A DNA stretch of 64,000 bases. Origin: Patescibacteria group bacterium (GTDB lineage Bacteria > Patescibacteriota > Patescibacteriia > JAXHNJ01). Each line of letters starts with the position of its first letter. Position 1 is the stretch's first letter. The position numbers and the translations under genes are program-made. Positions 25,177-56,834 of the stretch are shown here, in pieces. The stretch covers positions 11,057-75,056 of the forward strand of contig JAXHNJ010000003.1 of assembly GCA_034520665.1 (NCBI GenBank). The letters are read 5' to 3'. The notes beneath the pieces were generated by a model that saw only the letters and a program-made list of their open reading frames with translations, had not been told where the DNA came from and searched no databases.

Positions 25177-25511
25177 GGTTATATTATATATTATTTATAC
25201 TAAATAATAAAGTAATTTATTTATTTAATAAAATTTGATTAAAAAAAAGACCCCGTCAATGTGATCTTGTCTAGATTAGAAATTAATGTTATTCAACAAG
25301 GAATTTATCCCAAAACATCTTTGAAACGAGAAATTATTTTTGTATAAATAAAAATTGAATGGACAAATTTTCTGAAGGCTAGTTAGGGCACTCTATTTTA
25401 AAACATCTAGCCGAATTATGAATGGTCGAAAACCCGGAGGCAAGGATTCTATTTTTGATATTAGGCGGGATAAAGAATAAACCGCTAAACAAATTATTAA
25501 ACTTCTCAAAT

Positions 25512-25688
25512 CCGAGAAGCGCGGATCTCCTGATCCGCGTCACCTTATTCGGTTGGATCAGGAGATCCAACCTTCTCGAGCAAAAATAGATTATTAAATC
25601 TCTAATTCACCGAGAAGCTCTGGCCCCCAGGCCTTGAGCTTAGTAAATATATTGCCAGAACCGGTCTGGGGACCAGTTCTTTTCGCGA
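25512..25688 (+). pseudogene. about 177-nt repeat: two hairpins (cgcggatc/gatccgcg; ggttggatc/gatccaacc) followed by a roughly 100-nt sense fragment of the RAYT gene
   Basis: Identical to 42477-42653. The 3' 100 nt align with the reverse complement of 51604-51700 (the RAYT ORF region encoding KQIIKSLNHREALAPRPELSKYIARTGLGTGSS); homology decays by about 25735. Confidence 0.7.
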
Positions 25689-25738
25689 TAAAATAATAGA
25701 GTCTTTTAAAAAAGTTTTAAAAAAAACCGAAGATGAAT

Positions 25739-25763
25739 CTGGAGATAAATCTCCAGCTACGCG
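25739..25763 (+). repeat. REP-like palindrome, family 1 (CTGGAGATAAATCTCCAG + CTACGCG)
   Basis: Perfect 8-bp arms ctggagat/atctccag followed by ctacgcg (GTAG on the other strand). Identical copies at 41561-41585 and 41654-41678. Confidence 0.8.
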
Positions 25764-41585: not shown

Positions 41586-41594
41586 GTTGGAGAG

Positions 41595-41653: not shown

Positions 41654-41678
41654 CTGGAGATAAATCTCCAGCTACGCG
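41654..41678 (+). repeat. REP-like palindrome, family 1
   Basis: ctggagataaatctccagctacgcg. Confidence 0.8.
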
Positions 41679-41725
41679 ATTGGAGAGGTTTGTTTACGAG
41701 TAGGTAAAAGATTTATCTCCGCTAA

Positions 41726-41835
41726 TTTACCAAGAAGTCTGAACTTAGTAAATATATTGCCAGAACCGGTCTGGGGACCAGTTCTTCTCGCGAAAAAATC
41801 TTTTTTAAAATATCGCCATATGAATGTTGCGCCAA
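41726..41835 (+). pseudogene. third, internally deleted RAYT-fragment copy plus shared 3' extension (cttttttaaaatatcgccatatgaatgttgcgcc)
   Basis: Matches 42570-42701 except for a deletion of about 20 nt; the 3' extension motif occurs again at 42150-42192. Confidence 0.6.
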
Positions 41836-41883: not shown

Positions 41884-42150
41884 TTTATGTTTTGCTAATT
41901 GGTTATGGTTATAGCAGCTAGTAAGGTTTTGGTTGTGGGTTTGGAATAAAAAACCATTGACTCAGCCTAATAACCAAACTAGCGGCTCGGCCCAAAACCC
42001 TCTTTTTTGCTAATTGGTTATGGTTATAGCAGCTAGTAAGGTTTTGGTGGTGGGTTTGGAATAAAAAAACCATTGACTCAGCCTAATAACCAAACTAGCG
42101 GCTCGGCCCAAAGCACTTTGTTTTAAGGCTAATTGGTTTATACTTGTGGA
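41884..42150 (+). repeat. tandem direct repeat, about 124-nt unit, 2.2 copies
   Basis: Unit tgctaattggttatggttatagcagctagtaaggttttggt.gtgggtttggaataaaaaaccattgactcagcctaataaccaaactagcggctcggcccaaa...; copies about 95% identical. Confidence 0.75.
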
Positions 42151-42281
42151 GTAATCTTTTTAAAATGTCGCCATATAAATGTTGCGCCAGGAAATAATAT
42201 TATTCTAATCTCTCTGGCGCCGGCTTCTAAGCCAGTGCTATAAGTTTGTATATTAAAAAATAGAATCTAATTACTTTCTAT

Positions 42282-42347
42282 CGCCTAGGCAAAAGATTTA
42301 TCTCCGCGTTTAAATAAAATCGCCTAGGCAGAAATCTCTATTCCCGC
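42282..42347 (-). repeat. composite repeat, family 3, second copy
   Basis: cgcctaggcaaaagatttatctccgcgtttaaataaaatcgcctaggcagaaatctctattcccgc. Confidence 0.7.
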
Positions 42348-42476
42348 TATATATTAAATATTCAAATAGTATGCTTTTGTTTAAATTTATTTTAATATCG
42401 ATAAATCAGGCGTAGAGGCGGGTCATGGCCCGCACCGCCTTATAAAACAAACTGCCAAGGAAACCCTTAAAATTAC

Positions 42477-42653
42477 CCGAGAAGCGCGGATCTCCTGATC
42501 CGCGTCACCTTATTCGGTTGGATCAGGAGATCCAACCTTCTCGAGCAAAAATAGATTATTAAATCTCTAATTCACCGAGAAGCTCTGGCCCCCAGGCCTT
42601 GAGCTTAGTAAATATATTGCCAGAACCGGTCTGGGGACCAGTTCTTTTCGCGA
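42477..42653 (+). pseudogene. second copy of the 177-nt hairpin plus RAYT-fragment repeat
   Basis: Nearly identical to 25512-25688. Confidence 0.7.
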
Positions 42654-42950
42654 AAAAACCTTTTTTAAAATATCGCCATATGAATGTTGCGCCGGGTTGT
42701 ATTTTAAATTATTAAACCTTCTGTGAACGAATTTATTCGGCGCTATGTTCTTAAAAAAAATGATACATTCTCACGCTTTCGCGTGGACACCACTTACTAT
42801 TGTTAAAGTGGAGATGGGGATCTGAACCACAGTCGCGCTAAGCGCGACTTACTAAATAAGATATAGAAAAGATCAGGGAGGAAATTAAAAAAGAGCTTGG
42901 TTTTTAAGCTCAAATTTTTTTCCCAAGGCTGTGGTAAACACAGCCTTTTT

Positions 42951-44582
42951 TTATTTCTTACAAACTTGTAAAAACTCGACAAACAAAGGATGGGGATTTA
43001 AAAATTGGGATTTATACTCCGGATGAAACTGCACGCCAATAAAAAACGGATGGTCTGAAATTTCCACGGCTTCCACTAATTTACCATCCGGCGAAGTACC
43101 GGCTATGGTCAAACCTTTTTTTTCCATTTTAGCCCGGTAAGCCGTATTAAACTCATAACGGTGGCGATGACGCTCCTGAATTTTTCTTTTATTTTTATAA
43201 GCTTTAGCTAACCGAGTACCTTTGATTATTTTACAGGGCCAGTTGCCGAGACGAATGGTACCACCGTATTGCTTTTTGGCTAGATATTTTTCTTGATCAG
43301 GCATAACATGAATAATTGGATGAGGGGTTTTGGGGTCAATTTCACTGGAATTGGCCTTTTTTAGCTTTAATACATTTCTAGCAAATTCAATAACCGCCAT
43401 TTGCATACCATAACAAAGACCTAAATATGGGATAAAATTCTCGCGCACATACTTGATAGTTTTAATTTTGCCCTCTGAACCCCTTGAACCCCAGCCCTGC
43501 GGCACCACTATGCCGTCATAATTTTTTAATTTTTTCACGTTTTGCGGTTTTCTTTCAAATTCTTCGGCGTTTATCCATGTCAGTTCTAATTTAGCTGTAT
43601 TAGCCCAAGCCGCGTGCTTTAAAGACTCAATTACAGAAATATAAGAATCCGCTAAAATAAAATCTCCTACGCCAAAATATTTACCAACAATACCGATTTT
43701 TACCTTTTTTCTGGCTCGTTTTGATTTATTTATTATTTTTTGCCATTCTTTTAAATCTCCTTTTCTTGGCCTTAGACCAAAATTTTTCAGTATTTTACGG
43801 GCTACTTTTTGCTTGGAGAAATTTAAAGGAATTTCATAAATATTATCTACGTCAACCGCTGAAATAATATTTTCCGGATCAACATTACAATTAGTGGATA
43901 ATTTCTCCCGGCGAGGTTTATCAAGCGGTTTTTCGGCCCGACAAAAGAGAAAGTCTGGCTGAATACCGGCTGAATTCAAAGTGCGTACAGCGTATTGAGT
44001 CGGTTTGGTTTTCATTTCACCAATTTTACTGGGAATAGGCAGATAACTGACTAAAATATATTGGACTTGTCCCGGGTTTTTTAAATTCATCATTCTGGCT
44101 GCTTCTAAAAATAATAGATTTTGATATTCGCCAACTGTACCACCGATTTCAATAATAATAAAATCAGCTTTTGATTTACGGGCTAGTTTTTTAATGCGTC
44201 TTATTACTTCGTTGGGAATATGAGGCACTACTTCGACACATTTGCCGTTAAATTCCAGGTTTCTTTCTTTTTGGATAACCGACCTATAAACAGACCCGGT
44301 GGTCATGTAATTGTCTTTGTTTAATTCCTGGCTTAAAAATCTCTCATAATTACCGATATCCTGATCAGTTTCCAAACCATCCTGAGTAACAAAAACTTCT
44401 CCGTGCTCGGTCGGGTTCATGGTACCGGCGTCAACATTTACATAAGGATCAATTTTCATAGCTGAGACCCGATAACTTTTGCTTTTTAAGAGACGAGACA
44501 AAGAAGAAACCGCAATGCCTTTACCTAAACCGGACAAAACCCCGCCCATGACAAATATAAATTTTGTTTTAGTTTTTTTCAT
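42951..44582 (-). CDS. pyrG: CTP synthase
   Basis: 543 aa. N-terminal synthetase (FIFVMGGVLSGLGKG) and C-terminal GATase (GLCYGMQ). Confidence 0.95.
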   Translation of the reverse strand: MKKTKTKFIFVMGGVLSGLGKGIAVSSLSRLLKSKSYRVSAMKIDPYVNVDAGTMNPTEHGEVFVTQDGLETDQDIGNYERFLSQELNKDNYMTTGSVYRSVIQKERNLEFNGKCVEVVPHIPNEVIRRIKKLARKSKADFIIIEIGGTVGEYQNLLFLEAARMMNLKNPGQVQYILVSYLPIPSKIGEMKTKPTQYAVRTLNSAGIQPDFLFCRAEKPLDKPRREKLSTNCNVDPENIISAVDVDNIYEIPLNFSKQKVARKILKNFGLRPRKGDLKEWQKIINKSKRARKKVKIGIVGKYFGVGDFILADSYISVIESLKHAAWANTAKLELTWINAEEFERKPQNVKKLKNYDGIVVPQGWGSRGSEGKIKTIKYVRENFIPYLGLCYGMQMAVIEFARNVLKLKKANSSEIDPKTPHPIIHVMPDQEKYLAKKQYGGTIRLGNWPCKIIKGTRLAKAYKNKRKIQERHRHRYEFNTAYRAKMEKKGLTIAGTSPDGKLVEAVEISDHPFFIGVQFHPEYKSQFLNPHPLFVEFLQVCKK

Positions 44583-45019
44583 TATTTTATAGTCAGTTTT
44601 AACTTAGCTTCTTGATCAGCTAATTTAATTTTGATATTAGACTGACCGGTTTGTTTAATCGGTTTATCTAAAATAATATTTTTTTCTTTTAAATCAAGAT
44701 TGAAATTTTTCTTAATTTTTTTTAATATATCACTTTTATGTACCGCTGCAAAAAGATGACCTTCCTCATTAGACTTCATTTTTAAAGTTATTTCTTTGCT
44801 TTTGAAAGTTTCTAATATTTTTTCATTCTCTTTTTCTTGTCTTAATTTTCTTTTTTCTCTTTTTTTTGCTTTTTTCTTAGCCGTTTTAATTTTATTAGGA
44901 GTGGCTTTTTCGGCTAAATTTTTGGCGATTAAAAAATTTCGGGCGTAACCTGGAGAGACTGCCTTAACTTCACCTTTTTGGCCCAGTTTTTTTATGTCTT
45001 CTTTTAAAATAATTTTCAT
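44582..45019 (-). CDS. rplI: 50S ribosomal protein L9
   Basis: 145 aa. MKIILKEDIKKLGQKGEVKAVSPGYARNFLI matches the L9 N-domain consensus. Confidence 0.85.
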   Translation of the reverse strand: MKIILKEDIKKLGQKGEVKAVSPGYARNFLIAKNLAEKATPNKIKTAKKKAKKREKRKLRQEKENEKILETFKSKEITLKMKSNEEGHLFAAVHKSDILKKIKKNFNLDLKEKNIILDKPIKQTGQSNIKIKLADQEAKLKLTIK

Positions 45020-45022
45020 AAA

Positions 45023-45298
45023 TTAATATTTTATTTTGAAATTTTGGTAATTTTTTTTATTTTCTAGATATTTTTTATCAATATTTTGTATTTGTCCTGG
45101 TGTCCGGCCACTTTTTAGCCAAGAAAAAAAATCTTCTAGTTTATTTTCAGAGCCAACCACTATTATTTCCACCCGGCCGTCATTAGTATTTCTGACATAG
45201 CCTTTTAAATCTAAATCTCTGGCTACTTGTTTTATATTATAACGCATATTCACCCCTTGAACAAGGCCTTCAAGCATAATTTTAACTCTTTTAATCAT
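45023..45298 (-). CDS. acyP: acylphosphatase
   Basis: 91 aa. V.GLVQGVNMR...GYVRNTNDGRVEI acylphosphatase signature. Confidence 0.85.
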   Translation of the reverse strand: MIKRVKIMLEGLVQGVNMRYNIKQVARDLDLKGYVRNTNDGRVEIIVVGSENKLEDFFSWLKSGRTPGQIQNIDKKYLENKKNYQNFKIKY

Positions 45299-45301
45299 TT
45301 A

Positions 45302-46540
45302 TTACCTCTGGTTTATTTCTTCTTTTATCAATTCTAAAGCTTTATCAAACTGGGGGTCTTTGTCATTATCAAAATCTTCCTGGGTTAGCTCTACTTCAAC
45401 ATCCGGAGTAATCCCTTTTTCATTAATATTATGTCCTTTAGGGGTAAGCCATTTAGCGGTGGTTAATTTAAGAGAAGAGCCGTCAGAAAATTGTTCATAC
45501 TCCTGGACTGAACCCTTACCAAAAGAGGTTTCACCGACAAGGGTGGCCTGATTATAATCTTTTAAAGCACCGGCTACAATTTCAGAGGCAGAAGCACTTC
45601 CTTCATTAATAATTACCGTCATCGGATAGCCTTGTAATTTAGCTTCCCCCTTAGCTTGGTACTCGGTAATATTCTCCTCAGAAAATTTTTCTTTAACAAT
45701 AACTCCCTCTTCTATAAAAAGCGAAGCTACTTTTATAGAGGTTTCTAAATAGCCTCCTGAATTGTTCCGCAAATCTAAAATGATACCTTGAACATCTTTA
45801 AGTAAAAAATCATTAGTGGCTTGGTCAAGTAAATTCATAGTGTCATCAGTAAAACTTGATATTTCTAAATAACCAATTTTTTTATCTTGGCTGGTAATAA
45901 TACTCCAATCAACACTTTTTATGTTAATTTTATCTCTGGTTATTTTTATATCTTTAAGCTCTTCCAATCCCTCCCTGGCCACAGTCAAAGTAACGGCCGT
46001 ATCCTTTTCCCCTCTGATTAAAGAAACCGCGTAATCCAAACTCATATTAGTCGTTTCTTGCCCGTCTATTTTAATAATTTTATCTTTGGCCTGTAAACCA
46101 GCTTTCTTAGCCGGTGAACCCTCTAGAGGAGCGATAACCTGCAGCTGATTATTTTTGATACCAATTTCAGCGCCAATACCCTCAAAACTGCCCTCAATTT
46201 CATTCAAAAAGACTTTTGATAGCTCAGGATTAAGAAAAGTGGAATAAGGGTCTTCCAGGCTGTTTACTAGGCCAGAAATAGCCCCATAAAGCATTTTTTG
46301 TTTATCAAGAGAACCATTAACATAATTTTCTTCAATGGCATGCCAAACCTTATTAAAAAGTATATAATTAACTGAGGAATTATTATCTGACAACAGACTT
46401 AAAGCCTCTTTTAAGGAAACATTTTTTTGCCAGGAAGAATTAGAGGAAAAACCCAATAAAAAACCGCCAATAAAAGCAGCCAGGATAAAAAAAACAACTA
46501 GAGTAATTAAATATTTTCTTTTACCAGTTTTATTATTCAT
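45302..46540 (-). CDS. ctpA: S41 C-terminal processing peptidase with PDZ domain
   Basis: 412 aa. N-terminal TM, PDZ domain, catalytic region (DLRNNSGGYL, SASASEI). Confidence 0.88.
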   Translation of the reverse strand: MNNKTGKRKYLITLVVFFILAAFIGGFLLGFSSNSSWQKNVSLKEALSLLSDNNSSVNYILFNKVWHAIEENYVNGSLDKQKMLYGAISGLVNSLEDPYSTFLNPELSKVFLNEIEGSFEGIGAEIGIKNNQLQVIAPLEGSPAKKAGLQAKDKIIKIDGQETTNMSLDYAVSLIRGEKDTAVTLTVAREGLEELKDIKITRDKINIKSVDWSIITSQDKKIGYLEISSFTDDTMNLLDQATNDFLLKDVQGIILDLRNNSGGYLETSIKVASLFIEEGVIVKEKFSEENITEYQAKGEAKLQGYPMTVIINEGSASASEIVAGALKDYNQATLVGETSFGKGSVQEYEQFSDGSSLKLTTAKWLTPKGHNINEKGITPDVEVELTQEDFDNDKDPQFDKALELIKEEINQR

Positions 46541-47792
46541 TGTTTATTCTCTTTATATCCGCCCCTAAATCTTTTAATCGCCGGTCAATATCTTCATAGC
46601 CTCGGTCAATTATTTCGGCTTGGTCAATTTCAGTGGTGCCTTCGGCAATGAGCCCGGCAATAATAAGAGTAGCGCCGGCTCTAAGGTCAGGGCTTTTGAT
46701 AAATTGGCCAAAAAGCGGTGTCGGACCGGTAATTAAAACGCGGTGCGGATCGCAAATAGTAGCGTTAGCCCCCATTTTCATTAATTCTTTAATATGGCTC
46801 ATACGGTTTTCAAAAAGAGGGTCATGAATTAAGCTGGTGCCCGGGCATTGGGTGGCCAAAACGGAAAAAGGAGCCTGTAAATCTGTGGGAAACCCCGGAT
46901 AGGGCATGGTTTGCACTTTAAAAGATTTCAAGCTTCTGGATTTTTTTATTTTAATATAATTTTTTTTCTCTTCTAATTTTACACCGGCCGCTTTTAATTT
47001 TAATACTACGCTTTCCAGATGTTCCGACACCACTTGTTTGATAGTTAATTTCGAACGGGTAGCCGCAGCCATAACTGCAAAAGTGCCGGCTTCTATCTGA
47101 TCCGGTATAATTTTATAAGAACCGCCTTTTAATCTTTCAACTCCTCTTATTTTCAGAGTATGAGTGCCAATGCCTTTTATTCTAGCTCCGAATTTATTAA
47201 GAAAATTACACAAATCCTGCACATGTGGCTCAGCGGCCGCCATTTTAATAGTGGTCAGGCCTTGAGCTAAAACAGCAGCCATAATCGCGTTTTCTGTTGC
47301 AGTAACTGAAAATTCTGGTAAAATAATAGTAGAACCTTTGAGATTCTTAGCTTTTAAAATATACTCTTCGTTTTTTTGCTCTATTTTAGCCCCTAGTTTT
47401 TTAAAAACATACAAGTGAGTATCAATCGGTCGGCTACCAATAATACAGCCGCCGGGTTGGGGAATTCTTACCTCTTTGAAACGAGTCAAAAGAGGAGCTA
47501 ATAAAAGTATGGAAGAGCGCATGGCTTCAACTTTTTCTTTGTTCAACTGGTTAAAACTAATATCCCCGGCCGAAACTTTTACTACATTATTTTTAAAATT
47601 GACCGCCACTCCTAAACTCAACATAATTTCTATTAAAGTTCTGACATCGGCAATATTAGGCACATTTTTTATAACAAAATTTTTATCAGATAAAAGAGTA
47701 GCCGCTAGAATCGGAGTCGCCGCGTTTTTCATACCGGATATATTTATTTCTCCTTTAAGGGATTTACCACCCTCAATAACAAATTTAGACAT
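46533..47792 (-). CDS. murA: UDP-N-acetylglucosamine 1-carboxyvinyltransferase
   Basis: 419 aa. EPSP-synthase-like fold, MSKFVIEGGKSLKGEINISGMKNAATPILAATLL, catalytic Cys region (GGCIIGSRPID). Confidence 0.93.
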   Translation of the reverse strand: MSKFVIEGGKSLKGEINISGMKNAATPILAATLLSDKNFVIKNVPNIADVRTLIEIMLSLGVAVNFKNNVVKVSAGDISFNQLNKEKVEAMRSSILLLAPLLTRFKEVRIPQPGGCIIGSRPIDTHLYVFKKLGAKIEQKNEEYILKAKNLKGSTIILPEFSVTATENAIMAAVLAQGLTTIKMAAAEPHVQDLCNFLNKFGARIKGIGTHTLKIRGVERLKGGSYKIIPDQIEAGTFAVMAAATRSKLTIKQVVSEHLESVVLKLKAAGVKLEEKKNYIKIKKSRSLKSFKVQTMPYPGFPTDLQAPFSVLATQCPGTSLIHDPLFENRMSHIKELMKMGANATICDPHRVLITGPTPLFGQFIKSPDLRAGATLIIAGLIAEGTTEIDQAEIIDRGYEDIDRRLKDLGADIKRINNE

Positions 47793-47847
47793 ATTTTATA
47801 CAAATCAATTGTTTATATTTTAACTTTAATATTAAAATTAGTCAAAG

Positions 47848-49161
47848 ATGACGATTAAAAAAAGAAGAATATTTTACCTGGCGCTTTTTTTGGTATTTAT
47901 TATTTTGGCCCCGATAATAGTTTTATACGCTACCGGCTATAATTTTAATATTGGGCAGAAAAAATTCACTAAAACCGGTTTTCTGGCGCTTGATTCCTAC
48001 CCTCAAAACGCTGATATCTATATTGATAACACAATCACTAAAGAAAAAACCCCGGAAAAATTCCGCTACCTCAGCCCCAGGCTTTATAATATTAAGATTA
48101 AAAAAAGCGGCTATACTGACTGGTCAAAAAATTTAAAGATACTGCCAAACCTATCTACTTTTGCCGAAAAGATAGTTTTATTTTTAAAAAAGCCCTTAGC
48201 TGAAAATTTATTAGAAGAAAATATTACTCAATATAAAGTTTCCCCAAATGGTGAAAAAATAGCTCTTGTTATAAAAAAAAATGATTATCAAGTTTTAGTT
48301 ATTGACTTAAAAAATAAAAATAAAAAAGTGATTAAAAAGTCTATTAAGTCACCGATTACCCAAATCGAATGGATTGATAATTTTTTGTTTTTAGCCGGGA
48401 AAAATGAGGAAAAAAACGAGTACCAGATTATCAGTACCATTTATTCAGAAGAAATAAATCTTTCCGAAATTTCTGATAAAGAGTTTACAAAAATAGAGCC
48501 TTATAAAGATAACTTTTATACTTTATCGGAAAATATTCTTTACAAAATTGATTTATCAAATAAAAAATTAACTAGAGTTTCTGAAAAACAAGTAAGTGAT
48601 TTTACAGTCAAAAATAATATTTATTATATTGGAAAAAATAATCAAGAAAAGAATCTTTATCGTCTTGAAAACGATGAAGATAAAATAATAGACAATTTAA
48701 ACTATAAACTTAATTATCGTTTTATTAGTTTAAAAAATAATAATTTCATACTGGCTTCAGAAAATAATTTTTTTCTTTATAAAGATGAAAATATAAGAAT
48801 AAATTTTAATCAAAAAATTACAAAGGCTGAGATTTCTCCAGACAGTAAAAAATTAATGTATTATAATTCTCATGAAATTTGGCTTTATGACTGGGAAAAA
48901 GAAGAAAATCATTTAATTACTCGCATCAGTGAAGAAATAAAAAATTCTTTTTGGTATCCGCGCCACCATTACATAGTTTATGAAGCAGCTAATACTATTA
49001 AAGCCACCGAGGTAGATTTAAGAGATAAACGCAATCAAATCACTCTGTATGCGGCTTCTGAAAATATTGATTTTATTTCTTTGGTTTCAGAAAAATATTT
49101 ATCTTTGATAACCAAAAAAGAACCATTGTCGGTTCTTAAATTGCTAAAAATACAAAAATAA
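47848..49161 (+). CDS. membrane-anchored PEGA-domain protein with C-terminal beta-rich domain
   Basis: 437 aa. N-terminal TM, then a PEGA-like segment (ADIYIDN...TPEKF.YLSPRLYNIKIKKSGYTDW), remainder repeat-like beta structure. Confidence 0.45.
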   Translation: MTIKKRRIFYLALFLVFIILAPIIVLYATGYNFNIGQKKFTKTGFLALDSYPQNADIYIDNTITKEKTPEKFRYLSPRLYNIKIKKSGYTDWSKNLKILPNLSTFAEKIVLFLKKPLAENLLEENITQYKVSPNGEKIALVIKKNDYQVLVIDLKNKNKKVIKKSIKSPITQIEWIDNFLFLAGKNEEKNEYQIISTIYSEEINLSEISDKEFTKIEPYKDNFYTLSENILYKIDLSNKKLTRVSEKQVSDFTVKNNIYYIGKNNQEKNLYRLENDEDKIIDNLNYKLNYRFISLKNNNFILASENNFFLYKDENIRINFNQKITKAEISPDSKKLMYYNSHEIWLYDWEKEENHLITRISEEIKNSFWYPRHHYIVYEAANTIKATEVDLRDKRNQITLYAASENIDFISLVSEKYLSLITKKEPLSVLKLLKIQK

Positions 49162-49162
49162 T

Positions 49163-49882
49163 TTAGCTTTCGTTTTTTTCAGCCATAATTTTATTAGCCC
49201 GAAAGAGTGATTTAAAAGTGCCGGCATCAGTCCAGTTATTCTTAACCATAGCAAATTTCATCTTCTTATCTTTGATGTAATGATTATTAACGTCAGTAAT
49301 TTCTAGCTCTCCCCGATCAGAAGGTTTGAGGGTTTTGATAATTTCAAAAACATGATTATCATAGAGATAAAGCCCGGTCACGGCCAGGTTAGTGGCCGGA
49401 TTTTTCGGTTTTTCTTCAATCTTGGTAATTTTATCTCCCTCAACACTGGCTACGCCAAATCTTTCCGGATCGGCAACTTCTTTAATAAAAATCATTGATC
49501 CGTCTTGGTGTCGGGCAAAATCCTGCATTGGCGCGGCAAAATTATCAACAAAAATATTATCTCCCAAGATCACGGCTATTTTCTCTTCATCAGCAAAGTC
49601 ACGAGCCAAACCCAAGGCCTGGGCAATACCGCCGGCTTCTTCCTGGATTTCATAGGTTAGATTAACCCCAAATTCGCGGCCTGAACCGAGTAAATTAAGA
49701 AAATGACCGGCGTGTCCTGGTCCGGAAATAATTAGAATATCTTTAATACCGGCTCTAATCAGAGTTTCCAAAGGATAATAAATCATCGGCTTGTCATAAA
49801 CCGGTAATAAGTGTTTATTGGTTACTTTAGTGAGCGGCTCCAGGCGTGAACCGGTACCGCCAGCTAAGACTATTCCTTTCAT
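49163..49882 (-). CDS. rmlA: glucose-1-phosphate thymidylyltransferase-like sugar nucleotidyltransferase (short form)
   Basis: 239 aa. MKGIVLAGGTGSRLEPLT..K.LLPV nucleotidyltransferase signature; placed with rmlD and rmlB. Confidence 0.75.
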   Translation of the reverse strand: MKGIVLAGGTGSRLEPLTKVTNKHLLPVYDKPMIYYPLETLIRAGIKDILIISGPGHAGHFLNLLGSGREFGVNLTYEIQEEAGGIAQALGLARDFADEEKIAVILGDNIFVDNFAAPMQDFARHQDGSMIFIKEVADPERFGVASVEGDKITKIEEKPKNPATNLAVTGLYLYDNHVFEIIKTLKPSDRGELEITDVNNHYIKDKKMKFAMVKNNWTDAGTFKSLFRANKIMAEKNES

Positions 49883-49900
49883 AGTTTATATTCTATTATT

Positions 49901-50725
49901 TTATAAAATTTTTGTCAAAAACTCCCTTAAAGCCTCGGGCCACTTTCTCATCGGCTTTAGCTTATTATTATTTAAAATGGAATATTGGGGCCGCAAAGCT
50001 GGCCGGGGGAATTGATCAGAGGTAACCGGCAATAATTTTATTTCTTTTTGAGCTATTTTAAAAATGGCCCGGGCTAATTCATACCAGGTACATGAGCCAG
50101 CATTGGTGGTGTGATAAATGCCAAAATCCTGATTTTTTTCTATTATTTCTTTGGTTTTTTGAGCTAAATCTAAGGCGTGAGTCGGTGAGCCGTGCTGATC
50201 ATTAACTACTTTTATTTCCTTTTTTTTATCGGCCAAATCCAGCATAGTTTTAACAAAGTTAGGACCGTTTGGCCCGTAAAGCCAGGCCGTTCTTAAAATA
50301 TAAAAATTATCGGTTTGTTCCTGAATTAATTTTTCTCCTAATAATTTTGATTTACCATAAACACTAACCGGATCAGGAGTGTCGTTCTCATCATAGCCGG
50401 CTTTTTTTTGGCCGTTAAAGACATAATCGGTGCTGTAGTGAATTAGCTTAGAGCCGAACTGGCGGCAGTATTTAGCTAAAAAGCCGACTCCCCGTCCATT
50501 AACTTCATAAGCTAGCTCTTGATTATCTTGACAGGCATCAACATCAGTATAAGCAGCCGCGTTAATCACTAATTCCGGCGCTTCTTTTCTAAAAAAAGCT
50601 TCAATCATTTTTGGCTTAGTAATATCTAATTCATCTTTATCCAAGCCCAAAGGATAATAACCAGAAAACTCTGACATTAATTCAGAACCGAGCATACCTT
50701 GCGAGCCAATAATTAAAGTTTTCAT
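49901..50725 (-). CDS. rmlD: dTDP-4-dehydrorhamnose reductase
   Basis: 274 aa. Short-chain NAD(P) Rossmann fold (IIGSQGMLG) and YxxxK (YGKSK). Confidence 0.85.
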   Translation of the reverse strand: MKTLIIGSQGMLGSELMSEFSGYYPLGLDKDELDITKPKMIEAFFRKEAPELVINAAAYTDVDACQDNQELAYEVNGRGVGFLAKYCRQFGSKLIHYSTDYVFNGQKKAGYDENDTPDPVSVYGKSKLLGEKLIQEQTDNFYILRTAWLYGPNGPNFVKTMLDLADKKKEIKVVNDQHGSPTHALDLAQKTKEIIEKNQDFGIYHTTNAGSCTWYELARAIFKIAQKEIKLLPVTSDQFPRPALRPQYSILNNNKLKPMRKWPEALREFLTKIL

Positions 50726-51354
50726 GTGATCTGGTGATTAGTTATTTTTTTTATAAATTGATGATTCTTATTTATTTTCGGACCCAGACGCGGATATTTT
50801 TTAAATCTCTGATAAGCTTTTTTAAAGCTGGAAATGACCGGTTTTTTCTTTTTTTGATCAAAGGAGGTGCGCATATCAGCGTAGGCAATAATTTTTTCTT
50901 CAATAGTCTCGGCTAAAGTATTTCTATTTTTAAATATACCATATTTTTGGTTTGTTTTCTTATCTAGTCCAGCCCCACCCAGGTGAACCAGGCAAATTCG
51001 GGCCAAACTTTCCGGGTAGCCCTCTTTTTTTAAAATATTATAACCCCTCAGCCCGTGGTAAATAGCCGGCTCTATCTCTTTAGAGCCAGGGCTGCCGGTT
51101 TTCATCCGGCCGATATCATGGACAAAAGAGGCCGGTTTTAAATAATCTAAATTGACTAGAAATCCATTTTCAATAGCTAGGTGCGCGATTTTTTTGGCAA
51201 AATTATAAACCACCTGGCTGTGTTTCCAGGTATTATTAACTTCTTGGGGAATGGCATTCTGAGCGGCAATTTTCTGCATCAAAGACTTAATCACCGGTAG
51301 TGAATACTTTTTGGCTTGGTAATTAATTTTCTTATTTAGCTTTTTAGCCACCAT
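50722..51354 (-). CDS. HD-domain phosphohydrolase
   Basis: 210 aa. H..HS...FAKKIAHL...VHDIGR metal-binding H and HD motifs. Confidence 0.7.
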   Translation of the reverse strand: MVAKKLNKKINYQAKKYSLPVIKSLMQKIAAQNAIPQEVNNTWKHSQVVYNFAKKIAHLAIENGFLVNLDYLKPASFVHDIGRMKTGSPGSKEIEPAIYHGLRGYNILKKEGYPESLARICLVHLGGAGLDKKTNQKYGIFKNRNTLAETIEEKIIAYADMRTSFDQKKKKPVISSFKKAYQRFKKYPRLGPKINKNHQFIKKITNHQIT

Positions 51355-51360
51355 TTAAAT

Positions 51361-51816
51361 TTATTCAATCTTTAAAATACTCTCATCCTCCATATAATAA
51401 TTCCGAAAACTTGAATATTTATAATCGGCTGCGTTTTTAACCAATTTGGCCCGGACAGGGTTAAAGTGGATGTAATCTAATTTTTGTTTTAAAAATTTCA
51501 TAGAAAAAATATTTTCTATCCAGTTGCGGCTTTGCCAGAGTTTGTAATTTTGATTATTAATATTTTGAGCGCCTTTTTTAAAACACTTTATTATTTTACT
51601 AGGAGAAGAACCGGTCCCCAGACCGGTTCTGGCTATATATTTACTAAGCTCAGGCCTGGGGGCCAGAGCTTCTCGGTGATTTAGAGATTTAATAATCTGT
51701 TTAGCGGTAAATTCTTTAAAATCGCGCATAATGTCCGATATAGAATTTTTACCCTGTGGCCAAATAATTGTGTGTAAATGATTAGCAGAGATAAATCTTT
51801 TGTCTACGCGGTTTTA
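51361..51816 (-). pseudogene. REP-associated tyrosine transposase (RAYT) / IS200-like HUH Y1 transposase, 5'-truncated
   Basis: The ORF-track protein (51361-51729) carries the RAYT C-terminal signature LWQSRNW...DYIHFNPVRAKLVKNAADYKYSS with the catalytic Tyr. Reading upstream in frame gives ...SANHLHTIIWPQGKNSISDIM with the HUH motif (HLHTII), but no start codon before a stop at 51817-51819. The 5' end runs into REP-like palindromes. Confidence 0.65.
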
Positions 51817-51848
51817 TTTAAGAGCGGAGATAAATCTCCGCCTACGCG
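51784..51848 (+). repeat. two REP-like palindromes (variant cagagataaatcttttgtctacgcg, then gcggagataaatctccgcctacgcg) at the truncated 5' end of the RAYT pseudogene
   Basis: Same half-site GAGATAAATCT and a trailing CTACGCG. Confidence 0.75.
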
Positions 51849-51959
51849 TGAGAAAAAATTTTTATTTTTCGATATCCGTGAAACCGGTAATCTTTTGCTT
51901 ACGCGTAAACAAACATCCCTATCCGTATAGGTGGAGATCTCTATCTCTAACTCTTCAAA

Positions 51960-52041
51960 CGCGTAGCTGGAGATTTATCTCCAGATTTATATCCAGATTT
52001 CAATTCATCCTCATTACGCGTAGCTGGAGATTTATCTTCAA
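51960..52041 (-). repeat. two inverted-orientation REP copies (cgcgtagctggagatttatctccag, then cgcgtagctggagatttatcttca)
   Basis: Reverse complement of family 1, with GTAG leading the palindrome. Together with 51784-51848 this forms an inverted REP pair (REPIN-like) about 110 nt apart. Confidence 0.75.
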
Positions 52042-52343
52042 AGTTTAGAATAATTAATTTTCAAATATCTTATTAGCTGAACAAGTTCAGCACACCGCCG
52101 GCCTTTTTATCAAATTTCAGCTGGATAAGTTCAGCACACCGCCGGCTGTTTAATTAAATAACTCCTTAAGGTTAGCGGCTTCACAAAACTTGTTTTGGGC
52201 AAAAGGTAACTTGATAATTTTCAAACATCTTATTAGCTGAACAAGTTCAGCACACCGCCGGCCTTTTTATTAAATAGTTTGCTTTATACTAGGTAGATGC
52301 GGGTCATGGCCCTCATCTACGCCTGGTTTATTGTTTAATAATT

Positions 52344-53363
52344 TTATTTTTTATAGTGCTTTTCTTCCCATTGCTTAAAATGTTCACCGGATAATATTTT
52401 CTGCCACCAGTCCTGATTATTTTGATACCAGTTTATGGTTTTTTCTAAATTTTCTTTCAAAGAATATTTAGGTTCATAACCCAGTTGGTTTTTAGCTTTA
52501 GACCAGTCCACCGCGTAACGCCGGTCATGACCAGGCCGATCTTTAATATATTCTAAAGAATCTTTTTCTTTTTTATTCATAACTTTTAAAATCTGCCTGA
52601 TTAAATCTAAGTTAGAAATATCTTCGGTCATGCCACCAATGCAGTAAGTCTCCCCGATCTTGCCTTTTGCTAAAACTAAATCAATAGCCCGGCAATGATC
52701 AATGACATAAAGCCAGTCGCGAACATACAATCCATCACCATAGATGGGCACTTTTTTGCCTTTTAATAGATTAGTAATAGCTACCGGTAATAATTTTTCC
52801 GGATATTGATAAGGACCATAATTATTAGAAGTATTGGTAATAGTCACTGGTAAATTAAAAGACTTCCAGTAAGCTCTGACAAGGTGGTCAGAAGCGGCCT
52901 TGGAAGCTGAGTAGGGGCTGTTTGGTTTGAATTGGGTTTGTTCGTTAAATTTTTCTTGAGTATCTAAAGGCAAAGCGCCGTAAACCTCATCCGTAGAAAT
53001 ATGATGAAATCTCTGGCCGCCGTGTTTGACCGCCGCTTCTAGCAATACTTGGGTGCCAATAATATTAGTCTGGGTAAATTCGTGAGCGTAGCCCTGGATT
53101 GACCGGTCAACATGCGACTCAGCGGCAAAATGAATAATAGTATCAATATCTTTGACTAATTCATCGACTAACTTTTTATCACAGATATCCCCTTTGACAA
53201 ATTTATAATTTTTATTTTTTTCAATATCTTTGAGATTAGCCAAATTACCGCAATAAGTTAACTTATCCAGATTAATTATTTCGTCATCTGGATATTTTTT
53301 TAGCCAATAGTGGATAAAGTTAGAGCCGATGAATCCGGCTCCGCCGGTGATTAGTATTTTCAT
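52344..53363 (-). CDS. rmlB: dTDP-glucose 4,6-dehydratase
   Basis: 339 aa. MKILITGGAGFIGSNF, YxxxK (YSASKAASD), extended SDR. Confidence 0.92.
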   Translation of the reverse strand: MKILITGGAGFIGSNFIHYWLKKYPDDEIINLDKLTYCGNLANLKDIEKNKNYKFVKGDICDKKLVDELVKDIDTIIHFAAESHVDRSIQGYAHEFTQTNIIGTQVLLEAAVKHGGQRFHHISTDEVYGALPLDTQEKFNEQTQFKPNSPYSASKAASDHLVRAYWKSFNLPVTITNTSNNYGPYQYPEKLLPVAITNLLKGKKVPIYGDGLYVRDWLYVIDHCRAIDLVLAKGKIGETYCIGGMTEDISNLDLIRQILKVMNKKEKDSLEYIKDRPGHDRRYAVDWSKAKNQLGYEPKYSLKENLEKTINWYQNNQDWWQKILSGEHFKQWEEKHYKK

Positions 53364-53460
53364 GTTGTATTAATAAATTAATTTTTATTATATCTCAATC
53401 TCTTACACCATCTCAAGCGTAGTCGCGTTGGCATAACCTTATTTTCTATTTCATGATTAC

Positions 53461-53516
53461 GCCACTCCCGCCTGCCTTCGCCTAACGGCGAAGCCGTTGT
53501 CGGGCAGGAAAGTGGC
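53461..53516. repeat. nested GC-rich hairpin (gccact/agtggc, cctgcc/ggcagg, ttcgcc/ggcgaa)
   Basis: gccactcccgcctgccttcgcctaacggcgaagccgttgtcgggcaggaaagtggc; three coaxial stems. Confidence 0.6.
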
Positions 53517-53640
53517 TAGGAAAAAAGAAAATATTATTTTCATACGGACTTTAGTCCGGTCTATTTTCTTTACGCCACTATTATAGAGGAAAGATCCATG
53601 TGAATGTTTTAAAGGGATTTCTCTATGTTGTCGACCACCC

Positions 53641-53668
53641 GTAGATGTCAGTCGCGACTGACATCTAC
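53641..53668. repeat. 28-bp perfect palindrome GTAGATGTCAGTCG|CGACTGACATCTAC
   Basis: Exact reverse-complement symmetry over 28 nt; lies in a 486-nt non-coding insert between ahcY and rmlB. Confidence 0.85.
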
Positions 53669-53849
53669 TCTTTAATGATCGGAGGAAATGGGTAAAGGGG
53701 GTAAAAGCGGTCTAAATGGAGTAAAACTGTTATAGGCCTTGCTTGCCGGTGATTAGTAGTTTCATAATATGATAATAAATAAATCTTTTTAGTAGTGTGC
53801 GTAATCGAGACTGCCACGCTCATTTTATTCGCTGGCAGTGACTTTCAGT

Positions 53850-55106
53850 TTATGTGCCGACTGACCACGAAGCTAAATATTTTTTTTGCTCCGGGGTAAG
53901 TTTATCAATTTTCACACCCATAGCTTTTAATTTCATGCTGGCTACTTTTTCATCAATTTTTTGAGGCACGCCATAGACTTTATTAGTCAAATTCTGAGGC
54001 TCCCCGGCCACCCACTGGCAGCAAAGAGCCTGGTTAGCAAAACTCATGTCCATAACTGAAGCCGGATGACCTTCAGCGGCCGCTAAATTAATTAAACGTC
54101 CGCCCGCTAAAACATTAATTTTCTTATTGTTTTTTAAAGTATATTCTTTAACAAAATTTCTGGTGTCACGGCTGGATTTTGCCATCTTCTTTAGAGTTTT
54201 TAAATCTATTTCCACGTCAAAATGACCGGAATTACAGACCACGGCCTCGTTTTTCATCATCTCAAAATGTTTTTTTCTAATAACATTAATATCACCGGTC
54301 AAAGTGATAAAAATATCCCCAATTTTAGCGGCCTCGGCCATGGGCATGACTTGAAAGCCGTCCATAACCGCTTCAATGGCTTTAAGGGGATCAATTTCCG
54401 TGACAATAACATGAGCGCCCAGTCCTTTAGCTCGCATAGCCGCTCCCCGGCCACACCAGCCATAGCCGGCAATAACCACCTTCCGCCCGGCTAATAAAAT
54501 ATTGGTGGCCCGGATGATACCATCCATCGTGCTCTGGCCGGTGCCATAGCGGTTATCAAAAAAGTGTTTGGTGTTAGCGTCATTAACGGCCACTACCGGC
54601 AGTTTTAAGACTTTATTTTTGGCCATGCTTTTTAAGCGAATGACACCGGTAGTAGTTTCCTCCATAGAAGCGTAAATTTGCTTTATTTGGTCTTTTCTTT
54701 GGCGGTGAAGGGTAGACACCAAATCAGCCCCATCATCCAAGGTAATGACTGGTTTTTGGTCTAGAACGGCGTTTAAATGCTGATAATAAGTCTTTTTATT
54801 CTCGTTGTTAATAGCAAAGACCGGAATCTGGGAATTTTTAACCAGAGCGGCCGCTACCTCGTCCTGAGTGGATAATGGATTGGAAGCGCATAAATAAACC
54901 TTAGCCCCGCCAGCCTTTAAAGTGCGCATGAGATTGGCCGTTTCAGAAGTAACATGCAGACAAGCCCCGATTTTCAGGCCCTTTAAGGGTTTACTTTTTT
55001 TAAAATCATTTTTTATCTGGCGCAAAACATCCATTTGTTTTTCGGCCCACTCAATTCTAATTTCGCCTTGTTTGGCTAATTTAATCGATTTAATGTCGTA
55101 GTTCAT
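53850..55106 (-). CDS. ahcY: adenosylhomocysteinase
   Basis: 418 aa. NAD-binding GYGWCGRG and a conserved AdoHcyase C-terminus. Confidence 0.93.
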   Translation of the reverse strand: MNYDIKSIKLAKQGEIRIEWAEKQMDVLRQIKNDFKKSKPLKGLKIGACLHVTSETANLMRTLKAGGAKVYLCASNPLSTQDEVAAALVKNSQIPVFAINNENKKTYYQHLNAVLDQKPVITLDDGADLVSTLHRQRKDQIKQIYASMEETTTGVIRLKSMAKNKVLKLPVVAVNDANTKHFFDNRYGTGQSTMDGIIRATNILLAGRKVVIAGYGWCGRGAAMRAKGLGAHVIVTEIDPLKAIEAVMDGFQVMPMAEAAKIGDIFITLTGDINVIRKKHFEMMKNEAVVCNSGHFDVEIDLKTLKKMAKSSRDTRNFVKEYTLKNNKKINVLAGGRLINLAAAEGHPASVMDMSFANQALCCQWVAGEPQNLTNKVYGVPQKIDEKVASMKLKAMGVKIDKLTPEQKKYLASWSVGT

Positions 55107-56071
55107 AAATTTTGTTTAAAATTATTTTTATATCTTTTGGCTAAAGTTTTTTTACTAAATTTATGGGTCTGGGTGCCGTATTTTTCCACGGTGTAAACAC
55201 TGACCAAGCCAGCCAAGCGACCGACTTTTTCTAAGGGATAACCCTCTAATAATCCCTTGATTAGTCCGGCTCGGAAAGCATCACCAGCCCCGGTGGGATC
55301 AGAAGTATTTTTGGGCCGAGCAATCGGTATTTTTATCTTTTCTTTTTTAGTTTCAAATAATGACCCTTTTGGCCCAAGAGTAGTCACCAATAAATTTATT
55401 TTATCAAGAATTTTCTTTTTTGTCAGGCCGGTTTTTTTGAGCATTAATGACATTTCATAATCATTGGCAATAATTACCTGACTGCCTAAAATCCCCGGTT
55501 TTAATTCTTTTTTACTTAAATTAGTAATCTGCTGGCCAAAGTCAAAAACATAAGGCAAATTTATTGACTGAGCCATTTGGCAAGCCTTAATCATATCCTC
55601 TTTATTACCCGGAGCGACAATTAAATACCGGCATTTTTTTAAAACTGATTTTTTGATTGAACAAGCATTTTTCATGGCTCCCGGATAAAAGGCAGTAATT
55701 TGGTTATCATCTTGATCAGTAATAATATAAGCCGAGGCCGTTACCTCATTTTTATATATTTTAATATTGGCCAGACTAATTTTATTTTTTTGATACCATT
55801 TTTTATATTTATTAAAATCAGAACCGGCCTGGGAGAAAATAACCGGCTCCAACCCCAGTAATTTTAAGTTATAAGCAATATTGCCGCTACAGCCGCCAAA
55901 GCCTTCTTGAAAAGTATCAGCACAAAAACTGACATTGAGCATATGAATCTTATCCGGCATAATATGGTCTTTAAACCGCCCCGGAAAATTCATAATGCGG
56001 TCGTAGGCTATTGAACCAGTGACGGCTATTTTTGTATTTTTGGTCATAGTATTAATAAATTCAAAGCACAA
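55103..56071 (-). CDS. PfkB-family carbohydrate/nucleoside kinase (likely adenosine kinase, partner of ahcY)
   Basis: 322 aa. GG..N N-terminus, DPTGAGDAFRAG anion-hole motif; overlaps ahcY by 4 nt. Confidence 0.8.
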   Translation of the reverse strand: MCFEFINTMTKNTKIAVTGSIAYDRIMNFPGRFKDHIMPDKIHMLNVSFCADTFQEGFGGCSGNIAYNLKLLGLEPVIFSQAGSDFNKYKKWYQKNKISLANIKIYKNEVTASAYIITDQDDNQITAFYPGAMKNACSIKKSVLKKCRYLIVAPGNKEDMIKACQMAQSINLPYVFDFGQQITNLSKKELKPGILGSQVIIANDYEMSLMLKKTGLTKKKILDKINLLVTTLGPKGSLFETKKEKIKIPIARPKNTSDPTGAGDAFRAGLIKGLLEGYPLEKVGRLAGLVSVYTVEKYGTQTHKFSKKTLAKRYKNNFKQNL

Positions 56072-56202
56072 AGCTCAAAATTCAAAACAAATCCTAAATT
56101 ATAATATCTAAATTCAAAACTTTTGTAATATATAGGGTTTTGAATTTTAATTTTTAATTATTTGGTATTATTTTGTACTTTGAATTTTGAAATTTGAATT
56201 TA

Positions 56203-56246
56203 ACAAAACTAATTAACCAATCAACAAATTAACTATTCCTCTAACT
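56203..56246 (+). repeat. octamer array copy F (overlaps rmlC-like stop)
   Basis: aacaaaactaattaaccaatcaacaaattaactattcctctaact. Confidence 0.65.
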
Positions 56247-56703
56247 CATCCCCTTCGCTGCATCCCCAATCATAACCAATCTCAGGGTCATTAAACGGCG
56301 CTCGGTGTTCGTCCGGATTTTCATGGTTGTAGGTCCTGGTTATAGTATTAATTAAAACAGCCGGCTGATCACCTAAAGCAGTAAAGCCATGGTAAACCCC
56401 TTGAGGGATAAAAACTAGCCTCGGATTATCTTCACCAATTTCAAAGTCATTGATTTCGCCTTTGGTTGGCGAGCCTTCCCGGCCGTCATAAAGAGCTACC
56501 TTGGCCATCCCTTTAACCACACAAAAGTGGTCATTTTGCTTATCATGATAATGCCAGGCCTTGGCATAGCCGGGTTTGCAAGTGGTTAGATAAACCTGGC
56601 CGAACTTTTCAAAAAAAGGGTCATCGTTTCGCAAAATTTCCATGAGATAACCCCGGTCGTCTTTAATCTTTTTTAGTTTTTTGGTTTGTACGCCTTGAAT
56701 CAT
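56233..56703 (-). CDS. rmlC: dTDP-4-dehydrorhamnose 3,5-epimerase-like cupin
   Basis: 156 aa. DDRGYLMEI...KAWHYHDKQNDHFCVVKG...IPQGVYHGF RmlC-family motifs. Confidence 0.8.
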   Translation of the reverse strand: MIQGVQTKKLKKIKDDRGYLMEILRNDDPFFEKFGQVYLTTCKPGYAKAWHYHDKQNDHFCVVKGMAKVALYDGREGSPTKGEINDFEIGEDNPRLVFIPQGVYHGFTALGDQPAVLINTITRTYNHENPDEHRAPFNDPEIGYDWGCSEGDELEE

Positions 56704-56834
56704 ATATTTATAATTAATTACTATTAAAATAATATTTTATTTATTTATTTATTATAACACCAAATTTATTAATTTACAAAAGTGTCATTTTCTGTTATAG
56801 TTTCAGATGAAATCATAAAAAAATTACCGCTCAA

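Follow-up and report, generated by a model that had tools for sequence, protein, structure and literature searches.

Does a 122-amino-acid 'hypothetical protein' beside a cluster of CGCGTAG palindromes mark a dead REP system in a Patescibacteria genome? The protein (GenBank MDZ7799138.1, U5L76_06090) is encoded on an 85,398-bp contig of a Patescibacteria metagenome-assembled genome (MAG), from which we analysed a 64-kb stretch of 34.6% GC, hereafter the window. A sequence-only reading had proposed a decayed REP system here, with a pseudogene of a REP-associated tyrosine transposase (RAYT) set among its palindromes, in a low-GC, CPR-like genome of a kind for which such systems were not well described. 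RAYTs typically occur as one or few copies per genome and are vertically inherited. To our knowledge, nearly all work on REP/RAYT systems has dealt with Proteobacteria. Our literature search returned no paper linking them to Patescibacteria or CPR, only routine annotation labels. As set out below, we read the locus as the decayed remnant of a 'REPtron' (a RAYT gene together with GTAG-tagged palindromes), at a probability of roughly 0.85. This kind of system is known and its pseudogenes are ordinary, but the lineage lacks an earlier description in the literature found.

The ORF ends in ...LDYIHFNPVRAKLVKNAADYKYSSFRNYY..., and the reading frame remains open for 28 further codons upstream, until a TAA at 51814–51816, giving an extended translation, NRVDKRFISANHLHTIIWPQGKNSISDI-MRDF..., that includes N-H-L-H-T-I-I-W. 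We compared this translation with the RAYT family as defined by NCBIfam REP_Tyr_transpos (NF047646), COG1943 and K07491. It matched NF047646 at E = 5.6e-18 over profile positions 56–146 of 146, and its score of 65.2 bits lies under the curated cutoff of 80 bits only because the N-terminus is missing; full-length relatives score 105–122 bits (P0001, 105.2; P0003, 106.8; L030 RAYT, 121.6). The Pfam Y1_Tnp cutoff was just reached, while the IS200 model NF033573 gave 20–30 bits against a cutoff of 55 (24–30 for full-length relatives). The profile search thus bears out the C-terminal RAYT signature that had been noticed by eye, and by its sequence the remnant is a REP-associated tyrosine (Y1/HUH) transposase, not an IS200-type one. 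The family itself is genuinely REP-associated, because its distant relatives carry repeated palindromes at both gene ends: many relatives at 30–42% identity, from Chloroflexota, Ignavibacteria, Acidobacteria and others, are flanked in this way. The nearest species representatives in our contig scan are 33–42% identical.

The closest database protein to the remnant is P0001 (MDZ7798159.1), a 200-residue 'transposase' from a Patescibacteria MAG, with 86% identity to it across the 143 residues common to both. Five more full-length relatives (61–69% identical to P0001) align with it from residue 1, whereas the window copy aligns from residue 58. His59, His61 and Tyr161 are invariant columns of the clade alignment, with the tyrosine lying within LDYIHFNPV. 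A family profile search found Escherichia coli TnpA-REP (4ER8) as the best solved structure (E = 1e-17), and an AlphaFold model of P0001 (pLDDT 82.7, pTM 0.84) retrieved the same structure first in Foldseek (E = 2e-9), with the transposases of ISDra2 and IS608 ranking below it. The model places β1, α1 and β2 within residues 12–55, the HUH motif on β3 (59–66) and Tyr161 on helix 152–168. TnpA-REP (RayT/YafM) has in common with this clade the Y1/HUH fold, a β-strand that bears the HUH motif and the catalytic tyrosine in a (D)YI(H/Y)xNPV helix, and its REP/BIME substrates are likewise short GTAG-tagged hairpins. It differs in sequence (~18% identity), and in lacking the clade's insertion of 25–45 residues (between 4ER8 residues 83 and 92), which is encoded by a double hairpin discussed below; the window copy is, moreover, 5′-truncated and inactive, and its host is a low-GC patescibacterium rather than a gammaproteobacterium.

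What remains of the gene is the C-terminal ~143 codons of a 200-residue RAYT, residues 1–56 being gone (Table 1). As had been claimed, the HUH motif lies only in the upstream extension: its H-L-H codons (51772–51780) are outside any startable ORF, with no ATG, GTG or TTG between the TAA and the ATG of the ORF. The extension opens with ten codons (NRVDKRFISA) that are a read-through of the palindromic repeat at 51785–51810 and not gene sequence. A tblastn search (word size 2, E up to 10) found no trace of codons 1–56 between 51811 and 52343. Because no start codon precedes the HUH strand and translation can begin only at Met76, beyond HUH, the predicted 122-residue product is catalytically dead; and because three core elements are missing as well, the window copy amounts to a pseudogene, or at most to a fragment without catalytic activity. 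The earlier suspicion that it is inactivated is upheld.

Alternatively, the product might be a functional protein that has been kept despite its lack of HUH, such as a regulator or a REP-binding factor. This would account for the 143 in-frame codons free of stops and frameshifts, for their 86% identity to an intact paralogue, and for an ORF that has an ATG and is annotated as a gene. Recent truncation explains the intact frame equally, however, and such a protein would have to do without three core secondary-structure elements and the HUH strand. No family of 120–125-residue homologues exists around it, P0012 (125 residues) and P0028 (102 residues) being isolated fragments, and we give this idea almost no weight.

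Table 1. RAYT remnants and REPs in the window (positions count from the first nucleotide of the window)
Feature	Position	Strand	Remarks
Locus C: annotated ORF MDZ7799138.1	51361..51729	-	residues 76-197 of P0001-type RAYT; catalytic-Tyr helix LDYIHFNPV present; without HUH motif; 86% identical to 200-aa P0001
Locus C: in-frame 'F2' double hairpin (doublet)	51601..51680	-	encodes REALAPRPEL..ARTGLGTGSS; bounded by GAGAAG and CTTCTC
Locus C: in-frame extension without start codon	51730..51783	-	residues 58-75; homology to full-length relatives from Asn58 (51781-51783) onwards
Locus C: REP of GCAAAAGAT subfamily, CGCGTAG+ACAAAAGATTTATCTCTGC	51785..51810	-	adjoins truncation point; no stable hairpin alone
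Locus C: F1 REP CGCGTAG+GCGGAGATTTATCTCCGC	51824..51848	-	unit search, ssDNA fold
Locus C: degenerate REP relics in spacer, aatcttttgCTTACGCG and GGTGGAGATCTCTATCTC	51889..51949	.	GGTGGAGATCTCTATCTC resembles L030 palindrome
Locus C: F1 REP CGCGTAG+CTGGAGATTTATCTCCAG	51960..51984	+	inverted relative to REPs at 51785-51848
Locus C: F1 REP CGCGTAG+CTGGAGATTTATCTTCAA, two mismatches	52017..52041	+	unit search
Island A: P0001-type RAYT remnant	25433..25740	+	~residues 66-136, stops, partial duplication; ends at F1 REP
Island A: two tandem F2 doublets	25513-25580 and ~25600-25692	+	inside RAYT remnant
Island A: REP CTGGAGATAAATCTCCAG-CTACGCG	25739-25763	-	inward-headed doublet with REP 25834-25859
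Island A: REP CGCGTAG+GCAAAAGATTTATCTCCGC	25834-25859	+	second half of inward-headed doublet
Island A: REP CGCCTAG+GCGGGAATCCCTATTCCCGC	25873-25899	+	repeat search
Island B: degenerate F1 REP	41367-41391	+	5′ side of N-terminal remnant
Island B: L030-type RAYT N-terminal remnant	41393-41558	+	residues 19-74; stop, frameshift, degenerate HUH 'QAHLIL'
Island B: F1 REPs	41561-41585 and 41654-41678	-	unit search
Island B: GTAAAAGAT-type REP	~41694-41722	+	repeat search
Island B: P0001-type RAYT fragments with F2 hairpins	41735-41833 and 42477-42693	+	tblastn, self-comparison
Island B: further REPs	42280-42307 and 42318-42347		repeat search

The extension runs, as the sequence-only reading had it, directly into a REP-like palindrome; on the forward strand this unit reads GCAGAGATAAATCTTTTGTCTACGCG, and its gene-strand sequence is CGCGTAG plus a degenerate palindrome. 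The REP unit of the window consists of CGCGTAG and a stem of 7–8 bp with a 4-nt loop (CTGGAGAT-TTAT-CTCCAG or GCGGAGAT-TTAT-CTCCGC). Four clear copies lie 5′ of the remnant as two inverted pairs, with inverted arms of 29 nt that are 86% complementary and 99 nt apart. Read along the gene strand, two palindrome-CTACGCG units (52041–52017 and 51984–51960) are followed by a 111-nt spacer with degenerate relics, then by two CGCGTAG-palindrome units (51848–51824 and 51810–51785) and codon 58, so that the GTAG heads point inward. The inverted pairs that had been described upstream are therefore real. Of the 'classic' REPIN/RAYT arrangement claimed with them, the inverted GTAG doublets stand, but flanking on both sides does not: the 3′ end of the remnant is 6 bp from the next gene, and REPs occur on the 5′ side only (51785–52041).

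Both the number and the folding of these units exceed expectation. With up to 2 mismatches allowed, the 14-nt core GGAGATAAATCTCC matches the window 16 times where 0.56 matches are expected, and 0 of 100 shuffles reach this count of 16; the 25-nt unit, with up to 6 mismatches allowed, matches 6 times where shuffles give 0.05, and four exact and two near-exact copies are present. Intact units form 7-bp hairpins as single-stranded DNA (−5.9 and −7.6 kcal/mol; z = −4.4 and −3.5). Units of the four-copy subfamily GTAG+GCAAAAGATTTATCTCCGC form no hairpin by themselves but pair with a partner unit as a long doublet hairpin, and the island A doublet (25736–25862) folds at −19.3 kcal/mol (z = −4.3). 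A third type, C(G/C)TAG+GCGGGAATCCCTATTCCCGC, begins at 25873 and 42318. Rfam contained no known RNA family matching anywhere in the window, which rules out a described riboswitch or sRNA as the origin of the hairpins.

GTAG-tagged REPs have been characterized as repeated palindromes with a terminal GTAG and a 6–9-bp stem, often arranged as inverted dimers, which together with their RAYT gene form 'REPtrons' (Di Nocera et al. 2013, PMC3733652), and 16-mers flanking RAYT genes are highly over-represented genome-wide (Bertels et al. 2017, PMC5581495). The window units show the terminal GTAG, the stem palindrome, the repetition and the inverted dimers, and REP 16-mers, with 5 copies, are the commonest in the window. 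REPtrons and the Pseudomonas REPINs of Bertels and Rainey (PMC5581495) thus resemble the system described here in their GTAG palindromes, inverted doublets, position beside a RAYT and locally most abundant 16-mers. They differ in that the GTAG heads face inward here, across spacers of 25 to 111 nt, and that the units are few (~12 in 64 kb, in three islands, a count for the window only), with every cluster beside RAYT remnants. The 5′-only placement and this constant company of RAYT remnants, unlike classic REPIN populations, speak against the REPtron reading.

At the corresponding place in the chromosome, L030 (Patescibacteria MAG JBDRMK010000011.1) has a system of this kind that is still intact. 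This contig is collinear with window positions 44376–56705 (~12 kb; 60–80% amino-acid identity by tblastx) and carries an intact 168-residue RAYT between the rfbB and HD-domain genes, the same genes that flank the window remnant. Two CGCGTAG doublets lie upstream of the L030 RAYT and one downstream, so that the flanking on both sides that is missing from the window is present there. The doublet consists of GGTGGAGATGGGGATCTCCACC-TACGCG, a 25-nt spacer and CGCGTAG-GCGGGAATCCCTATTCCCGCC, and 10 nt separate the promoter-proximal REP from the ATG. The window fragment and the L030 RAYT are only putative orthologues, and replacement at a hotspot may instead explain their shared position, because they are only 42–48% identical although the neighbouring genes are 66–80% identical.

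The exact REP was also found in a metagenome scan, on three JGI contigs, again as inward-headed doublets; no RAYT was found on these three short stretches. The intact clade members P0003 and P0005 lie tightly between housekeeping genes (spacers of 0–40 bp) and have no flanking REPs, so the cognate repeat family of the clade is uncertain: the CGCGTAG repeats may serve as substrate for the P0001-type enzyme, for the L030-type enzyme or for both.

All self-similar DNA of the window is confined to three islands: locus C and two others, islands A and B. The claim that the window holds a single RAYT copy fails here, since tblastn located further decayed RAYT fragments at 25433–25740, 41393–41595, 41735–41800 and 42538–42657, making at least five gene remnants of two lineages (P0001-type and L030-type) within 64 kb. 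REPs are present at three loci (25.7–25.9, 41.4–42.3 and 51.8–52.0 kb), in agreement with the earlier count of at least three, but they are never far from RAYT debris; the idea that the REPs spread while the transposase died overstates independent dispersal, because the island of each REP cluster also holds RAYT remnants. Positions 42477–42658 of island B are 99.5% identical to 25512–25693 of island A over 182 bp. L093, a JGI contig with 83% nucleotide identity over 6.3 kb, lacks both RAYT remnants and these REPs in the interval from MraY to the PD-(D/E)XK nuclease gene, and island A content is thus not ancestral at its site. We rejected the possibility that islands A and B contain the in-gene doublet as free copies instead of gene remnants: DNA identity runs 20–30 nt into coding sequence on both sides, and upstream coding remnants (GKDSIFDIRRDKE-stop-TAKQIIK) also counter it. 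The N-terminal remnant of island B and the C-terminal fragment of locus C are not one split gene either, as both hold HUH codons and their lineages differ.

This accumulation could also stem from dead copies of a multi-copy IS200/IS605-type element, in which a Y1 gene and subterminal hairpins move as a unit, and not from a domesticated RAYT accompanied by a population of REPINs. At least five remnants in 64 kb, each in an island with palindromes, the secondary arrival of island A content, the 182 bp shared almost unchanged by islands A and B and the differing gene neighbourhoods of clade members all favour such an element, and IS608 and ISDra2 TnpA do share with the present system the Y1 HUH superfamily, the recognition of single-stranded hairpins and an IS-like presence of several copies or remnants per genome. 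Yet the IS200 profile scores far under its cutoff where the RAYT equivalog passes, and there is neither a tnpB nor any tnpB-sized ORF in or beside the islands. Instead of one defined left and one defined right end, the palindromes are GTAG-tagged and form inverted doublets of variable number, intact clade members are without any flanking ends, and the position is conserved with L030. We therefore consider an insertion sequence improbable. The position common to the window and L030 supports vertical inheritance of a RAYT, but the two-lineage remnants, together with a probable paralogue, point the other way.

That paralogue is P0001 itself, which is probably an intact, 86%-identical copy in the same genome, on the 455.8-kb contig of the MAG. 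We infer this because its accession is 979 below that of the ORF, numbering is sequential along contigs (the genes beside MDZ7799138.1 have consecutive accessions) and 1217 loci precede U5L76_06090.

How might the gene have broken? On the REPtron reading, the ancestral state would have been that of L030, an intact RAYT between rfbB and the HD-domain gene with inverted REP doublets (palindrome-CTACGCG ... CGCGTAG-palindrome) on both sides. The enzyme would bind REP hairpins in single-stranded form and cleave or rejoin the DNA beside the GTAG tag, as established for E. coli TnpA-REP and presumed here. The first ~56 codons (β1, α1 and β2) and promoter-proximal DNA would then have been lost, leaving a REP next to codon 58, either when an inward-headed REP doublet inserted into the gene or when a deletion ran from the proximal upstream REP into it; the geometry of the break is equally compatible with both. 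Islands A and B contain older RAYT remnants of the two lineages, likewise cut at REP ends, and an intact paralogue elsewhere in the genome could still mobilise the repeats.

Three remnants have a clear break at a REP, and in each the gene fragment meets the palindrome end while the GTAG end faces away; islands A and B provide the left junction (gene to palindrome-CTACGCG) and locus C the right junction (CGCGTAG-palindrome to gene). In island B the F1 REP follows directly after the degenerate HUH motif (QAHLILT/SGDKSPATR, the first slash marking the junction). REP insertion into RAYT genes may thus be a recurrent self-killing route of these systems. A break exactly at a repeat copy, in a repeat-dense region of a MAG contig, could also be produced by assembly, the true genome having a full-length gene here. 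The repeat unit of ~25 nt is below usual assembly k-mers, however, and both flanking genes stand in the order expected from L030. One of the three JGI contigs, L092, moreover has the same junction as island B (HLILT/SGD(E/K)SPATR) and other repeat families of the window too; since it is independent, the gene/REP junctions are inherited or propagated and not assembly noise. An artefact is accordingly very unlikely.

The remnant also carries a double hairpin inside its coding sequence, the F2 doublet. Its gene-strand sequence is CGAGAAG-CTCTGGCC-CCCA-GGCCTGAG ... AGAACCGGTC-TGGG-GACCGGTTCT-TCTC, with the two hairpins in inverted orientation, and it folds as single-stranded DNA at −22.3 kcal/mol (z = −6.75). 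The doublet corresponds to the clade-specific insertion (P0001 residues 94–117), a surface loop for which the P0001 model is less confident (10-residue block means of 63–75 over residues 91–120; pLDDT below 50 at 111–114). Covariation was assessed on nine copies: those of the window gene, L081, L084, L087, L088 (two in tandem) and L089, and two from island A (one a variant). Among them, 92.8% of cells pair in the stems, compared with 35–50% when partners are slid, and 13 of the 22 pairs change on both sides; none of 500 shuffles reached the observed values. The second hairpin encodes a peptide of freely varying sequence. Selection on the in-gene doublet ([C/A]GAGAA[G/A]-hairpin ... hairpin-TTCTC) appears to act on DNA or RNA structure rather than on protein sequence.

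Throughout the available DNA, F2 occurs only within RAYT genes or their remnants, plus one copy directly after the L030 gene. Other RAYT genes also host palindromes at this loop. L023 and L071, from other Patescibacteria, are intact and read through palindromes there, and relatives in several other phyla have palindromes at the same loop. In three cases these share sequence with gene-flanking REPs; in one of them, L037, the 78-nt in-gene doublet (a 26-residue insertion) is 99% identical to the doublet upstream of the gene. Perfect hairpins of at least 8 bp centred at gene nucleotides 240–370 were found in 7 of 80 relatives, against 0.95 in shuffles (maximum 5 in 200). In-frame REP dimers that add 20–30 residues are known in other genes, as are the Rickettsia palindromic elements (reviewed in PMC3733652); the L037 insertion and the doublet of the window clade resemble these. 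What differs is that the host gene is the RAYT itself, that the same loop has been hit in several lineages, and that the doublet of the window clade is fixed in position with covarying stems. We found no mention in the literature of the RAYT gene as a recurrent host of in-frame REPs. Tentatively, and with considerable doubt, we suggest that the RAYT gene could harbour its own putative substrate, either as a protected REPIN master copy or as a site acting in cis, by which the system would recognise or regulate itself.

The 122-residue 'hypothetical protein' MDZ7799138.1 should accordingly be annotated as a RAYT pseudogene. The value of the locus lies in its lineage, in a clean syntenic pair of intact and decayed loci, in islands with two dead RAYT lineages and in the covarying doublet within the gene. 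RAYTs and REP doublets of the GTAG type can persist at one conserved place in the chromosome of streamlined ~1-Mb Patescibacteria, and the islands with remnants of two RAYT lineages indicate that REP/RAYT systems turn over in this group. Side by side, the window and L030 offer a small natural case in which a REP system can be studied before and after its death, and the covarying doublet raises the testable question of whether a RAYT recognizes a site within its own gene.

RAYT (REP-associated tyrosine transposase) genes of the clade represented in the window carry an in-frame double hairpin with GAGAAG and CTTCTC edges, and this element lies within the 5′-truncated remnant MDZ7799138.1. The stems covaried strongly (13 of 22 pairs) and the encoded peptide was variable. 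Across the available DNA, the double hairpin was found only within RAYT genes or their remnants, or directly after a RAYT gene, as in the syntenic Patescibacteria contig L030.

Palindromes at the same loop were read through by intact RAYT genes of several phyla, and perfect hairpins of at least 8 bp centred at gene nt 240–370 exceeded shuffle expectation among 80 relatives (7 versus 0.95). In contig L037, a 78-nt in-gene doublet (10247–10324) was 99% identical to the flanking REPIN (9835–9912), while in L022 and L070 the in-gene palindrome and the flanks of the gene had 12-mers in common.

Double hairpins, loop palindromes and small repeats in the window and in relatives
Feature	Sequence	Position	Strand	Context
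In-gene double hairpin	Window	51601–51680	−	Inside RAYT remnant
Further double-hairpin copies	Window	25513–25580, 25600–25692, 41744–41799, 42478–42545, 42563–42657		
Double-hairpin copies	L081	6833–6908		Relative
	L084	3460–3535		Relative
	L087			Relative
	L088 (two, tandem)			Relative
	L089			Relative
Palindromes in RAYT loop	L022, L023, L048, L059, L063, L070, L071	Gene nt about 250–360		
Island B/L092 small repeats	Window	42770–42790, 41802–41834, 42157–42189, 42662–42693		
	L092	383–400, 683–700, 610–635		

GenBank accession numbers run sequentially along the contig in the source MAG, and the accession of P0001 (MDZ7798159.1), an intact 200-aa RAYT, lies 979 from that of the remnant, with 1217 loci before U5L76_06090. 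This arithmetic suggests that P0001 is an intact paralogue in the same MAG, on the 455.8-kb contig. P0003 and P0005, intact RAYTs of the same clade, have the motif AGACGGGGTT about 30 nt ahead of their start codons (L081 6515–6527 and L084 3147–3158); it could be a promoter or end motif. Island A carries the similar GACGGGGTCTT on its minus strand (25248–25258, reverse complement).

The spacer that separates mraY from the PD-(D/E)XK nuclease gene was variable (window 25177–26068 versus L093 11051–13028), containing RAYT debris and REPs in the window but an unrelated 192-aa ORF, without a Pfam match, in the JGI contig L093, an 83%-identical relative.

Between the REP cluster and rfbB, a 61-nt repeat is present three times (52055–52275). 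Identity to the reference copy is 97% and 67% for the other two; in all three the palindrome GCTGAACAAGTTCAGC precedes ACACCGCCGGCC, and no further match was found in the rest of the window. GC-rich hairpins directly downstream of rfbB (GTAGATGCGGGTCA/TGGCCCTCATCTAC, 52293–52320) and in island B (GGCGTAGAGGCGGGTCATGGCCCGCACCGCC, 42409–42438) may be terminators or another GTAG-like palindrome family.

Island B, a repeat island with RAYT remnants and REPs, also contains a 108-nt tandem duplication (98% identical, 41890–42112). A 75%-identical copy lies beside mraY in L093 (11130–11296), making the duplication another repeat family common to relatives. The CACGCTTTCGCGTGGACA hairpin and ATCGCCATATGAATGTTGCGCC are more small repeat families, present both in island B and in the metagenome contig L092. 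Related genomes appear to retain the same collection of short repeats.
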